Of a DNA stretch of 64,000 nt, positions 1,126 through 56,055 are shown piece after piece. Source of the stretch: Acidobacteriota bacterium. GTDB taxonomy: Bacteria > Acidobacteriota > Blastocatellia > RBC074. Where the stretch lies: assembly GCA_019639255.1 (NCBI GenBank), contig JAHBSF010000006.1, forward strand, positions 26,261 through 90,260. The letters run 5' to 3'. Positions within the stretch are counted from its first letter, which is position 1. Each line of letters opens with the position of its first letter. Under the pieces are notes generated by a model, which worked only from the letters and a program-made list of their open reading frames with translations, ran no database searches and was not told where the DNA came from. Both the position numbers and the translations under genes were made by a program.

Positions 1126-1262
1126 GAGAGATGACGAAACAAACGAAAATAGACGAAACAGACGGAAACATTCACCTTATCCGTTCTTTTCGTTTCATTT
1201 CGTTTGTTCCGTTATCTCTCATACGTCTCACGCTTTTACTGATCTCCAGTGGATCGGTTAAG
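1126..1262. repeat. family-A palindromic MITE-like element, copy A1 (core plus right tail)
   Basis: GAGAGATGACGAAACAAACGAAAATAGACGAAACAGACGGAAACA...TCCGTTCTTTTCGTTTCATTTCGTTTGTTCCGTTATCTCTC followed by the tail ...TCTCCAGTGGATCGGTTAAG. The tail overlaps the 3' end of ileS. Confidence 0.85.
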
Positions 1263-4043
1263 GCTCGCAGCGCATCGCGCGCATGCACCCGGATACCGGG
1301 CGTCGGAGCCTACATCGGTAGTATAGTTCCAGCAGCGTTCGCATTTTTCGCCGTCCGCTCGCGCTACCGTTACATTCAGTTCCGCCCCGGGTGCGAGTTC
1401 AACACCCGATACGATCAGGGCGAACCGCAGATCGTCGCCGAACGATGCAAGAAATTCCTGCGTTGACGAGTCGGCTGCAATAGCGACATGGGCTTCGAGC
1501 GCCGAGCCGATGAGTTTTGCATTGCGGGCTTCTTCCAGTGCTTTGGTAACGACACCGCGTATCTCGAACAGGCGTTCGTATCGCGCTCTCAACGCATCAT
1601 TGCTCCACGTTTCTTCCACGGTCGGGAAAAGCGTCAAGTGAACGGAAGCCGCCTTGCGGGTTGCGCCCGGAATATTCTCCCAGATTTCATCGGCTGTAAA
1701 CGCAAGTATCGGCGCCGACAGACGTGCAAGGCGCGACACAATTTCGTAAAGCGCAGTCTGCGCCGAGCGCCGAGCGCGCGATTTCGGAGCGGCGGTGTAG
1801 AGCCTGTCCTTTATGATGTCGAAGTAAAGCGACGACAATTCGAGCGTCGAAAACGAATAAATCGCCTGATAGACTTCCGTGAAGTCATAGCGTTCGTATG
1901 CAGTCAGCGCGCGGCGCGCAACTTCATTTAGTTCAGCGAGCGCCCAGCGGTCGATTTCCAGCATTTCATCGAACGCTACACAGTCATTCTCCGGGTCAAA
2001 GCCGTCGAGGTTGCCCAGGCAGAACCGGGCGGTGTTGCGTATCTTGCGATAGGCGTCCGAGATCCTTCGCAGGATCTCTTCGGATACGCGCATATCTTCA
2101 AAATAATTCAGCGCCGAACACCAGAGCCTCAATATCTCCGCCCCGCTTTGCCTGAAAATCGTCTGAAGATCGAAGGCGTTTCCCTTCGATTTCGACATCT
2201 TGTCGCCCTGAACATCGACTACCCAGCCGTAGGTAACCACGGTCTTGTACGGGGGCGCATCCTTTACTTCGAGTCCGACTACGAGCGAAGAATTGAACCA
2301 CCCGCGGAACTGGTCGCCGCCTTCGAGGTATACATCCGCAGGGTAGGGAAGTCCGCGCGGTTCGAGCACAGCAATCGAGCTTGCACCGGAGTCGATCCAC
2401 ACGTCCAGGATATCCATTTCCTTTCGGAAACGCGTACAGGAGCATTTCCTGCATACCGTCCCATCGGGCAGGAGTTCCTCCGCCGGGCGTGCATACCAGG
2501 CATCGGCCGATTCGCTTTCAAAAATCGTCGCAACGTGTTCGATCACCGCAGCGTCGCAGATCGCCTCGTCGCAATCCTCGCAGTAAAACACCGTGATGGG
2601 CACGCCCCACGACCGCTGACGGGATATGCACCAGTCGGGCCGGTTGTGGAACATGTTCTTCATCCGTACGTTGCCCCACGCAGGAACCCATTCGACGGCG
2701 TCTGCTGCGGCAATCGCGCGTTCGCGCAGGCGGGTTGCCTCCATGGATATAAACCATTGCGGCGTTGCGCGGAATATCACAGGATTGTGACAGCGCCAGC
2801 AGTGCGGGTAGTTGTGCTCGTAGTCTTCGACGTGGAGCAGCACGCCGCGCTCGCGCATGTAGTCGACGATCTTCGGATTCGCCCTGAATACCTGTTCGCC
2901 CGCAAAATGTTCGACTTCGGGAATGAACGCGCCGCGGCTGTCTACGGGGTTGTAAACCTCAAGGCCGTATTGCCTGCCGATAACATAGTCCTCGTAGCCG
3001 TGCCCCGGGGCAGTATGGACCGCGCCCGTGCCGTCATCGAGCGTCACGTGATCGCCCGTCATCAGCAGGCAATCGCGGTCGATAAAGGGATGCCGTGCAT
3101 TCAGGCGGTCGAACTGCGAGCCGTTATAGCGCCCGAGCACTGTGGGTTCATCGGGCCAGCCGAGCTTTGCTGCAACTTTTGCAAGCAACCCTTCAGCGAC
3201 GATGAATACTTCGTCGCCGATTTCTACCGCGACGTACTCAAACGCGGAATTAAACGAAATGCCGAGGTTTGCCGGCAGCGTCCACGGCGTAGTGGTCCAG
3301 ATAACGATGTTGACCGAGCGGGAGGCAAGCCGGGGATCGAGTTTGCCGGCGTCGGGAAATGGGAATTTGACGTAGATCGAGGGGCTTGTATGTGTGTTGT
3401 ATTCGACTTCGGCTTCGGCAAGCGCCGTCTGGTCGTTGATGCACCAGTGAACCGGGCGCAGTCCTTTGTAGATTGCACCGCGTTCGACGAACTTTCCGAA
3501 TACGCGAACGATCGCCGCCTGATAACGGTAATCCATCGTCAGGTAGGGGTTGTCCCATTCGCCCAGTATTCCGAGACGTTTGAATTCGTCGCGCTGAAGT
3601 GCGATGAATTTTTCCGCGTGACGGCGCGCAGCGCGGCGGATGTCGATCGTGCTCATCTCGGATTTTTTAGCGCCGAGTTCCCGGTCTACCTGTATTTCGA
3701 TTGGCAGGCCGTGGCAATCCCAGCCCGGGATGTAGGGCGCCCAGCGCCCCATCATAGAGCGCGACTTGACGCAAAAATCCTTGAGCACCTTGTTGAGTAC
3801 GTGCCCGAGGTGCAGACGGCCGTTGGCATACGGCGGGCCGTCGTGCAGGACGTAAAGCGGGCGTCCCTGCCGAACCTCGCGCAGGCGTTCGTACAGATCT
3901 ATTTCGTCCCATTTCTTCAGCCGTTGCGGCTCGTTGTGCGCGAGGTTCCCCTTGAGCGGGAAATCGGTTTTGGGCAGATTGACCGTCCTCTTCAGATCGA
4001 GCGAGGCGTCGGCGGATTGATCGGTTGGCGTTTCGGTTGACAT
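1236..4043 (-). CDS. ileS: isoleucine--tRNA ligase
   Basis: 935 aa with HLGH-type class I motif (PYANGRLHLGHVLNKVLKD), KMSKS (DKMSKSKGN) and a C-terminal CxxC...CxxC zinc finger. The last codons (..LNRSTGDQ*) are encoded by the tail of repeat A1. Confidence 0.95.
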   Translation of the reverse strand: MSTETPTDQSADASLDLKRTVNLPKTDFPLKGNLAHNEPQRLKKWDEIDLYERLREVRQGRPLYVLHDGPPYANGRLHLGHVLNKVLKDFCVKSRSMMGRWAPYIPGWDCHGLPIEIQVDRELGAKKSEMSTIDIRRAARRHAEKFIALQRDEFKRLGILGEWDNPYLTMDYRYQAAIVRVFGKFVERGAIYKGLRPVHWCINDQTALAEAEVEYNTHTSPSIYVKFPFPDAGKLDPRLASRSVNIVIWTTTPWTLPANLGISFNSAFEYVAVEIGDEVFIVAEGLLAKVAAKLGWPDEPTVLGRYNGSQFDRLNARHPFIDRDCLLMTGDHVTLDDGTGAVHTAPGHGYEDYVIGRQYGLEVYNPVDSRGAFIPEVEHFAGEQVFRANPKIVDYMRERGVLLHVEDYEHNYPHCWRCHNPVIFRATPQWFISMEATRLRERAIAAADAVEWVPAWGNVRMKNMFHNRPDWCISRQRSWGVPITVFYCEDCDEAICDAAVIEHVATIFESESADAWYARPAEELLPDGTVCRKCSCTRFRKEMDILDVWIDSGASSIAVLEPRGLPYPADVYLEGGDQFRGWFNSSLVVGLEVKDAPPYKTVVTYGWVVDVQGDKMSKSKGNAFDLQTIFRQSGAEILRLWCSALNYFEDMRVSEEILRRISDAYRKIRNTARFCLGNLDGFDPENDCVAFDEMLEIDRWALAELNEVARRALTAYERYDFTEVYQAIYSFSTLELSSLYFDIIKDRLYTAAPKSRARRSAQTALYEIVSRLARLSAPILAFTADEIWENIPGATRKAASVHLTLFPTVEETWSNDALRARYERLFEIRGVVTKALEEARNAKLIGSALEAHVAIAADSSTQEFLASFGDDLRFALIVSGVELAPGAELNVTVARADGEKCERCWNYTTDVGSDARYPGACARCAASLNRSTGDQ

Positions 4044-4204
4044 TTTTCTGGCGATCCTTGCGGAGTTTGAATCAAAAAGACATCAATGATAACGAAAAAT
4101 ATGCGAATCCCCAATAGCTTCGGCTATCTCCGGTTTGAGAAGAGAACAAACCGCGCAATATACAGAACACACGGAAGTCGCAACAGAAGGACGTTGCGCC
4201 AATG

Positions 4205-55582: not shown

Positions 55583-55620
55583 TCACGGGCAATGGGCCTT
55601 GCTTTGAACTTGCTTTGAAA

Positions 55621-56055
55621 ATGACTGTAGTCGCTGAAAAAAGTCGGAAACCGATCAGAGAAGGGTTGTTTGCGGAAGATGCGAACGGCGTGAGTCTGAT
55701 CGGCGGGCGGTGTCGGGAATGCGCTGAAATCGTATTCCCCGCCAATCCCTTTTGCCCGCGGTGCTGTCGCGAGACGACCGAACCCGTTGCACTCTCTCGG
55801 CGCGGAGTGCTTTACAGCTTCACCGTGCAGCGTTTCAAACCGCCGCCGCCATATCGCGGACCCGATCCTTTCGTCCCGTACGGCGTAGGTCTGATAGAAC
55901 TGCCCGAGGGGCTGCGCATAACTTCGGTGCTCAAGGCGGAACCGGACGACCTTCGCGTCGGGATGGAAATGGAGCTAGTGGTCGAGGGGTTTTTCGAGGA
56001 CGAGGACGGCAACGAAATACTGGGCTACAAGTTTCGCCCGGTGGAAGAGAGATAA
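55621..56055 (+). CDS. DUF35 Zn-ribbon + OB-fold protein (thiolase partner; ChsH2-C-term/IpfE-like)
   Basis: GRCRECAEIVFPANPFCPRCC (rubredoxin-like Zn ribbon) followed by an OB-fold segment. The last codons and stop (...EER*) are encoded by repeat A13. Confidence 0.75.
   Translation: MTVVAEKSRKPIREGLFAEDANGVSLIGGRCRECAEIVFPANPFCPRCCRETTEPVALSRRGVLYSFTVQRFKPPPPYRGPDPFVPYGVGLIELPEGLRITSVLKAEPDDLRVGMEMELVVEGFFEDEDGNEILGYKFRPVEER

Follow-up and report, generated by a model that had tools for sequence, protein, structure and literature searches.

In Coxiella burnetii, copies of the repeats QMITE1 and QMITE2 extend 1–50 bp into the 3′ ends of functional genes with little change in protein size, and their stem-loop is stable enough that the authors discuss processing by RNase III (PMC5896051). 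These small, palindromic, non-autonomous repeats, which supply the last codons and/or the stop codon of genes (PMC5896051), are the closest precedent for a palindromic repeat, here called family A, of which 16 copies are present in a 64-kb stretch of contig JAHBSF010000006.1 from a bacterium of the Blastocatellia (Acidobacteriota). This whole stretch is referred to as the window, and the copies are numbered E1 to E16 along it; the window matches contig JAHCHF010000006.1 of the metagenome-assembled genome GCA_026129895.1, annotated as an Acidobacteria bacterium. Coxiella belongs to another phylum and its QMITEs show no sequence relationship to family A, which differs from them in having one long central palindrome of CGRAA units spaced at 9–10 bp together with separate conserved tails, and in being much denser, with about one copy per 4 kb.

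REP and BIME elements (repetitive extragenic palindromes and bacterial interspersed mosaic elements) of enterobacteria and pseudomonads resemble family A as extragenic palindromes located just past stop codons, and species-specific REP variants occupy the same intergenic sites. REPs measure 20–40 bp and carry GTAG or CGTC heads (PMC3733652), whereas family A measures 97–170 bp, is AT-rich and lacks such heads; REPs within 15 nt of a stop codon are reported to affect translation in work cited in PMC12306157. Correia (CREE/NEMIS), ERIC and RU-type elements of the miniature inverted-repeat transposable element (MITE) kind in enterobacteria are, like family A, MITE-like repeats of 100–170 bp with long hairpins, and some of them are fused to open reading frames (ORFs), including at the C-terminal end (Delihas review, PMC2229807). 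They show no sequence similarity to family A, and Correia elements typically come with a TA duplication, whereas the one, diverged empty site of family A shows no clean duplication. As in bacterial MITEs, family A consists of non-coding multi-copy units of 97–170 bp with terminal inverted repeats and presence/absence polymorphism (copy E12 versus the sister locus L042). No Rfam family matched it, and no description of it was found in the literature on palindromic repeats of Blastocatellia and Chloracidobacterium. Family A appears to be undescribed so far, while the capture of coding ends by such repeats is already known and is an expected, previously documented consequence of these elements rather than a new mechanism.

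Rickettsia palindromic elements (RPEs) are inserted in frame within genes and are read through, which adds an internal peptide segment to the host protein. The original prediction for this stretch likened family A to RPEs, and the likeness holds insofar as a multi-copy palindromic repeat of about 100 bp (here 97 bp) ends up translated in host proteins. It fails in that no copy is read through inside a gene: when compared by defining features, the host frames here stop inside the element and only the extreme C-terminus is swapped. The analogy is therefore a loose and superficial one.

Four genes end in family-A sequence

The core of family A is an AT-rich palindrome of about 97 bp (AGAGAGATAACGGAACAAAC...GTTTGTTCCGTTATCTCTCT) whose termini read AGAGAGATAACGG, and complete copies additionally carry conserved tails of 30–45 bp ending in (T)TAAATCnnnCCACA, which gives a full unit of about 170 bp. 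The original prediction held that such elements provide the last codons and stop codons of at least six genes and that the insertions replaced native C-termini. With stop positions read straight from the window sequence and orthologue alignments run as a check, both parts stood for the GT9-like, NagB-like, DUF35 and ileS genes, but not for nadC and the propeller gene.

In the GT9-like gene (24794..26281, +), the stop codon TAA at 26279-81 lies 20 nt into the palindrome core of E6 (palindrome 26253..26361, core 26259-26355), and the last seven codons plus the stop (26258-26281) come from this copy. The frame within the palindrome reads AAG AGA GAT AAC GGA ACA AAC TAA, and the predicted origin of the peptide RDNGTN as translated element proved correct, as it is encoded by AGA GAT AAC GGA ACA AAC. 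The two closest orthologues (85–87% identity) end in ...VLSRLG* and ...VLRILGEIGTEKETTEHTE* (VLRILG plus 13 amino acids). In the first, a TAA of its own immediately precedes a different palindrome; the second is read for 13 codons into a palindrome variant that it carries itself. In the window protein, the LG codons (CTGGGT) are lost and the end reads ...VLRIRKKRDNGTN (...IRKKRDNGTN); judged by these sister orthologues, a native ...LG* was exchanged for ...RKKRDNGTN*. As RNA, E6 folds into a hairpin of -72.1 kcal/mol (z -16.5).

The NagB-like gene stops at 45030-32, at the TAA of the motif GATAAC in E11, a short tail-less palindrome (45023..45100). Positions 45023-45032 give the last base of one Glu codon, a Glu and a Gly codon, and the stop. 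The 67 orthologues end in LPNVIE*, LPNVLEG*, LPDVLEA(DGQ) and similar sequences, compared to LPNVEEG in the window, and in a sister the gene ends GTT ATA GAG TGA, with a different, CGCGGAA-type palindrome 20 nt further on. A native ...NVIE* has thus become ...NVEEG*, that is, two codons plus stop were turned into three codons plus stop.

The DUF35 gene likewise ends at the TAA of GATAAC (56053-55), in E14 (56046..56170, +), which consists of a palindrome (56046-56142) and a tail ending at the ATG (56171) of the downstream thiolase gene; positions 56046-56055 supply the codons for E and R and the stop. Since concatenated C-terminal queries gave orthologues of nadC, NagB-like, ileS and alaS genes and none of DUF35, the DUF35 orthologues were taken from the metagenome scan. 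At eight element-free orthologous loci, a conserved YKF[RK]P is followed by variable tails of 2–25 amino acids, and the gene overlaps or nearly abuts the thiolase gene. In the window, the protein ends in ...YKFRPVEER* and the element fills the gap to the thiolase gene. The stop is element-derived, as are one to three codons.

The fourth gene, ileS (-), stops at 1236-38, which is 15 nt outside the palindrome end of E1 (1125..1221) and within its 45-nt tail. E1 lies between ileS and lspA (-, ATG 1110-1112) and has a hairpin energy of -45.8 kcal/mol (z -6.6); its tail (type 1, see below; 1222..1261, -) encodes the last seven ileS codons (NRSTGDQ) and the stop at 1236-1238. Over 45 nt, this tail is 69–76% identical to the non-coding tails at 5485-5526, 28689-28729 and 50513-50560. 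About 60 IleS orthologues share C.RC..[NS]L[ED]E[MI]L.. after the C-terminal zinc finger, and two element-free loci read as DNA continue AGT TTA GCA GAG ATG TTG TGA and ...CTG GAA GAG ATT GGT..., respectively. The window gene reads ...AGC CTT AAC CGA TCC ACT GGA GAT CAG TAA (SLNRSTGDQ*), with tail sequence from the AAC codon on. In this way, the conserved ...[NS]L[ED]EML. was swapped for ...SLNRSTGDQ, encoded by the tail. One IleS orthologue, P0242, ends in EEIGLTNKTVR and looks element-like; it was rejected as a capture since there is no element in its DNA.

Altogether, the element-derived codons before the stop number seven in the GT9-like gene and ileS and two in the NagB-like and DUF35 genes, and the C-termini of the four captured genes are altered by about 1–8 residues, with a net change of +1 to +7 residues. 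Captures are also found in other Acidobacteriota metagenome-assembled genomes (MAGs), where they affect thiD-like, RsmD-like, TPR and LPG-synthase-like genes: the thiD-like gene continues for 27 residues past its Pfam domain end, through the tail to GATAAC TAA, and the RsmD-like gene for 38 residues past its domain end.

In nadC (-), the stop codon (14435-37) is the first 3 nt beyond the palindrome end (14434) of E3 (14348..14434), which abuts it. The 52 orthologues end in ...SFKI[RK]P[AVS]*, nearly all with a length of 288 amino acids; the window protein ends in ...SFKIRPS* at the same length and contains the complete TIGR00078 profile. The C-terminus is native and the element only abuts the stop; a shared orthologue ending is what the prediction itself had named as speaking against capture, and the claim for nadC is refuted. 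At the sister locus L041, 25 nt of this element terminus survive right behind the TAA of nadC, and the TAA itself might belong to the element.

The propeller gene (26379..28613, -) was said to share E6 with the GT9-like gene, so that one copy would hold two convergent stops. Its stop (26379-81) lies 24 nt outside the E6 core and 18 nt past the longest inverted-repeat extension (26361), in a region that aligns with no tail, and its context CTACTGGAATT (GTTTCTACTGGAATT) is kept in two sister species carrying different palindromes. The match to the NCBIfam profile Soli_cterm, which has 225 positions, runs to position 223, at residue 742 of the 744-residue protein. With the stop outside the palindrome, a context conserved in two sisters and a complete domain profile, capture of the propeller gene is not supported, and E6 holds only the stop of the GT9-like gene. 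The 17 nt between the propeller stop and E6 look like the remnant of an older palindrome arm. In the propeller, RNase J and NadC proteins, domain profiles match as far as the native end.

Further candidates were rejected. The stops of the RNase J gene and alaS align weakly with inner tail positions, yet both proteins are of native length and were not counted. Two ORFs with element-like ends, 37302..38219 (-) ending in LNQTT* and 61847..63460 (-) ending in PDQSR*, are antisense to the real genes, which according to Pfam matches are ftsY and an acyl-CoA dehydrogenase gene, respectively; GC content by codon position gave no separation of sense from antisense ORFs. As a separate observation, the stops of a BamD-like gene (19181-19183) and of a major facilitator superfamily (MFS) gene (37147-37149) coincide with the outermost TGAAAC of degenerate tails, and in the sister locus L041 the stop of the BamD-like gene is the TAA of a TTAAATC terminus. 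These two genes may be further cases in which the element boundary is the stop codon.

Copies, tails and an empty site of family A

Searching the window for the family-A terminus GATAACGGAACAAAC with up to three mismatches gave 32 matches compared to 1.4 expected from 100 shuffles, none of which reached 32. The matches pair up into 11 full and 5 partial palindromes, and family A is a real repeat family. The full cores lie at 1125-1221, 14348-14434, 19053-19149, 21484-21585, 26259-26355, 33652-33748, 37191-37287, 42287-42383, 45023-45100 (short), 50561-50657 and 56046-56142, and the partial copies near 5527, 28688, 51601, 59510 and 61832. The whole core is an inverted repeat with 76–96% complementarity and no ORF lies within the copies. 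Its arms consist of about four CGRAA units each at a period of 9–10 bp (spacings of 9 bp in 26 cases, 10 bp in 13 and 19 bp in 7), a period at which the units would face approximately the same side of the DNA helix, like those of protein-binding arrays. As RNA, the copies form long hairpins of -30 to -72 kcal/mol, with z-scores of -6.6 to -16.5 in six copies and -2.7 in the short E11. Many MAGs of Blastocatellia and other Acidobacteriota likewise contain the terminus GAGATAACGGAACAAAC as an exact 17-nt match, with tails that differ by lineage, e.g. TAACTRCTCAGG....

Two types of tail were distinguished. The type-1 tail, (T)TAAATCGATCCACWGGTGATTGGTACAAAGCGTGAGACAGCA, is found to the right of E1 and E7 and to the left of E2 and E12, with 69–80% pairwise identity over 45 nt, and in diverged form to the left of E9; the shorter type-2 tail, ...AAATCAAACCACATGACATCGGGGCGTAAA, lies to the right of E9, E12, E14 and E16. 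The full units E9 and E12 have the outer inverted ends AATCnnTCCACA and TGTGGnnTGATT. Tail orientation equals the direction of transcription in 7/7 oriented copies (E1, E2, E7, E9, E12, E14 and E16) and on both DNA strands: type-1 tails point toward the stop of the upstream gene (E1, E2, E7, E9 and E12) and type-2 tails toward the start of the downstream gene (E9, E12, E14 and E16). RNA-level selection or strand-specific insertion could cause such an orientation.

E12 (50513..50680, +), with a type-1 tail, a palindrome (50561-50657; -54.4 kcal/mol, z -10.6) and a type-2 tail, is absent from the sister locus L042 (8150-8241), where the flanks are alignable and both tails are gone along with the palindrome. 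The relatedness of the two is seen in the NagB-like protein, which is 94% identical across the queried C-terminal segment of 130 residues. The empty site reads GTATGAACATGTTTGATCGAGCGAAGGAG, whereas the window reads GTATGAACCTGGTTT, then the inserted AATCGATCCACA...palindrome...TGTGGAGTGATT, then CAATCGAGCTAAGGAG. The inserted unit thus measures about 168 bp with both tails included, and because the sister site lacks the palindrome together with both tails, the tails belong to the inserted unit. The outer-terminus motif AAATCNNNCCAC alone, with one mismatch allowed, gave 19 matches in the window compared to 15.6 expected and is not above chance; since it is unspecific, the assignment of the tails rests on the long alignments and the empty site.

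With antisense ORFs removed, stops of real genes lie within 60 nt of a palindrome terminus in 12/16 copies, with offsets from the G of GATAAC of +15, +2, +2, -10, -10, -16, -16, -22, -28, -31, -36, -39, -49 and -57. All 16 copies are located between genes or at gene 3′ ends and none inside an ORF. In nearly all copies one frame stops after two codons. Certain copies also have frames that contain no stop over their full length, and given these open frames, internal insertion is possible in principle.

The remaining copies are as follows, the palindromes E1, E3 to E6, E8, E10 and E11 being recorded without strand. E2 (5485..5570, +) is a truncated copy in non-coding DNA, with type-1 tail and left arm only. 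From E4 (19053..19149), a degenerate tail extends to the stop of the BamD-like gene (19181-19183, -), and its left end adjoins the tail of a family-B hairpin unit (see below). E5 (21484..21585) lies between the stop of greA and the start of a PASTA-domain gene (both -), and E7 (28640..28729, -), a right arm with type-1 tail, lies upstream of the start of the propeller gene, where the sister L039 has a different palindrome. E8 (33652..33748) is located 20 nt past the stop of alaS (33629-33631), whose product has a C-terminus of native length. The full unit E9 (37147..37317, +) comprises the diverged type-1 tail, the palindrome (37191-37287) and a type-2 tail and is situated between the stop of the MFS gene (37147-37149) and the start of ftsY (37341). 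E10 (42287..42383) lies 8 nt from each of two convergent stops, those of the RNase J (42276-78) and DUF2227 (42392-94) genes; the region 42276-42394, with its 8-nt gap on each side, has the geometry of a bidirectional terminator. E13 (51555..51601, -) is a remnant made of a tail fragment and a palindrome tip, beside a family-B hairpin at 51464-51537. E15 (59505..59560, +), a left arm only, follows the stop of gene 57993..59507 (TAA 59505-07) and represents essentially the whole 61-nt spacer from this TAA to the AAGGAG Shine-Dalgarno sequence of the co-directional gene 59569..60798 (window positions 59505-59568). E16 (61780..61862, +), a right arm with type-2 tail, lies upstream of the acyl-CoA dehydrogenase gene.

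Origin of the captured gene ends

We consider it likely that family A is a non-autonomous MITE-like palindromic repeat and that the captured gene ends are its passive by-products. The family would have spread through this acidobacterial genome; variants of it particular to each lineage are present in many Blastocatellia and other Acidobacteriota MAGs, and its copies would persist almost only in short spacers directly 3′ of stop codons. Once insertion or recombination has brought a copy into the last few codons of a gene, translation in the host frame would continue into the element and end at the first in-frame stop, which in one frame is the invariant TAA of GATAAC. Selection would presumably let only those insertions survive that alter few, dispensable C-terminal residues, and the chimeric tails NRSTGDQ, RKKRDNGTN, EEG and (E)ER would be passive by-products rather than functional domains. 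From these comparisons we infer that copies move by transposition, that selection filters the insertions and that the new tails have no function.

Several observations weigh against this explanation. At five orthologous sites (GT9/propeller, NagB/UxaE, upstream of the propeller gene, BamD/response regulator and greA/PASTA), sisters hold different palindrome variants within the same outer boundaries; different variants at fixed sites point to re-insertion at hot spots or to gene conversion and are not explained by one-off insertion. From the uniform tail orientation one may suspect selection on a property that is strand-specific or acts at the RNA level; together with the turnover at fixed sites, this orientation rule is what a purely neutral model accounts for least. 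For the TAA of nadC and of gene 57993..59507, a native and an element-owned origin fit equally, and the flanks of E12 (TTTAATCGA and TTCAATCGA), compared with TTTGATCGA at the empty site, allow several readings of a target-site duplication from one diverged pair. No transposase gene was found among the window ORFs checked, a check that included no search aimed at a parent insertion sequence.

The turnover was seen by comparing the window regions 26253-26378, 45023-45100, 28640-28729, 19053-19183 and 21484-21585 with L039, L040, L041 and L042. The palindromes at shared sites in three related species are of the GAGAGATAACGGAAC, GAAACTACGGAAC and CGCGGAA types.

An alternative, which we regard as possible but rather unlikely, is that the hairpins are kept for a role in RNA, as 3′-end stabilisers, RNase III sites or partial terminators, and that a stop in the stem or within 15 nt of it tunes translation of the upstream gene, as reported for E. 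coli REPs. The overlap with stop codons would then be functional rather than incidental, and a functional layer may exist at mRNA 3′ ends or, by analogy with REPs, in translation termination. The very stable hairpins, the position of 12/16 copies within 60 nt after a stop, the 8-nt distance of E10 from both convergent stops, the arrangement of type-1 tails to the upstream and type-2 tails to the downstream gene in 7/7 oriented copies and the presence of a palindrome at the same intergenic sites in three species despite differing sequence are all consistent with such a role, as is the stalling of ribosomes by REPs within 15 nt of a stop reported in work cited in PMC12306157. However, the E12 site is simply empty in the sister species, where its two genes are 32 nt apart, and several copies split tightly coupled gene pairs (ileS-lspA and DUF35-thiolase), in which a strong terminator would be harmful. 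Also, no canonical GC-rich stem base followed by a U-tract is apparent: the long stems are rich in AT, and pyrimidines prevail in the 3′ flank (CUCUCUUUU in E9, E11 and E16) with no clean U-run. A terminator scan for stems of up to 20 bp and loops of 3–8 nt, which is uninformative for long AT-rich stems, flagged no copy.

The closeness to stop codons could also stem from target choice, which we likewise regard as possible but rather unlikely. If insertion occurs at, and duplicates, a short TA-containing target (TA, TAA or YTAR), such targets would be concentrated in the TAA and TAG stops of a genome with 57% GC, and many copies would start at a stop. The outer termini here (TTAAATC...) and those of another lineage (TAACTRCTCAGG) indeed start TAA- or TTAA-like, the stops of nadC and gene 57993..59507 are a TAA joined to AAAGAGAG or AAATACAG and then ATAACGG, and the stop of the sister BamD-like gene is the TAA of its TTAAATC terminus. 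On the other hand, the sole empty site (GTTTGATCGAG in the sister) contains no TA and shows no clean duplication, the outer-terminus motif alone occurs at chance level (19 versus 15.6 with one mismatch), several adjacent stops are TGA, and the TAA could equally belong to the terminal inverted repeat.

It seems improbable to us that family A, family B and the CGCGGAA-type palindromes of sister species are modules of one cassette system which follows the direction of transcription and which Blastocatellia actively keep at the 3′ ends of their genes. In such a system, lineage-specific cores would, equally improbably, replace one another at fixed sites via gene conversion or homing, and the CGRAA arrays would serve as putative protein-binding arrays or RNA processing signals, a role we likewise doubt. 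If true, stop capture would be the visible side-effect of a functional, self-renewing punctuation between genes.

Finally, that the tails are native gene-end sequence or a preferred target, with only the palindrome repeated and the ileS end native, is very improbable and already contradicted: several copies (E3, E6 and E11) have no tails and those of E8 and E10 give poor alignments with the remaining tails, but at the empty site of the sister both tails are missing as well as the palindrome, tails of 69–80% identity stand in non-coding DNA far from stops (e.g. E2, 165 nt past the previous ORF), and about 60 ileS orthologues, two of them element-free at the DNA level, share a different conserved ending.

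If family A is, as we favour, a MITE-like repeat with passive capture of gene ends, the last residues of many predicted proteins in these Acidobacteria would be repeat-derived, including those of housekeeping enzymes such as IleRS. Such ends should not be taken for conserved C-terminal motifs, and gene callers and orthologue alignments would show spurious C-terminal variation. Family A adds a phylum-wide, very dense and apparently undescribed palindromic family to the MITE- and REP-like elements that reshape gene ends, and it is suited to asking whether stop-enclosing hairpins affect translation termination or mRNA stability, and why orthologous spacers are refilled with lineage-specific palindromes.

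Neighbouring repeats and other features of the window

A GC-rich hairpin of a second family, family B (CTGGGTACGCACGCGCCCTCGCGTGC..., 97% complementary), occurs twice, at 18956-19025 and 51464-51537, and shares its flanking tail module, TAAATCnnnCCAC...GGTAC, with family A. This sharing suggests that different hairpin cores are carried between one common set of ends. L042 also has a family-B hairpin at the 51.5-kb site. The window further contains a single CGCGGAA-type palindrome (60802-60873; GAGAACGCGGAATACGC...GCGTTATATTCCGCTTATTCCGCGTTCTC), the type that is dominant in the sister species of L039 and L042.

Beside E3 and E8 lies another, composite inverted-repeat family (14118-14353 and 33744-34033). 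Rfam matches to the Acido-Lenti-1 RNA fall into these regions, at 14148-14194 (-) with 46.9 bits and at 14277-14323 (+) and 33800-33846 (-) with 37.4 bits each, the latter two just above the gathering score of 37. In the window, the Acido-Lenti-1 'sRNA' (small RNA) motif acts like a component of a palindromic element that is itself repeated.

The spacer of about 490 nt between a LarN-like gene and an amidohydrolase gene with a TAT (twin-arginine translocation) signal (48850-49341) is highly conserved in L042 (6546-7016). It gave no Rfam match at the gathering threshold and contains a promoter-like TTGACT-18-TAGAAT at 48920-48949; the region could correspond to a long, structured leader or to an RNA not yet annotated.

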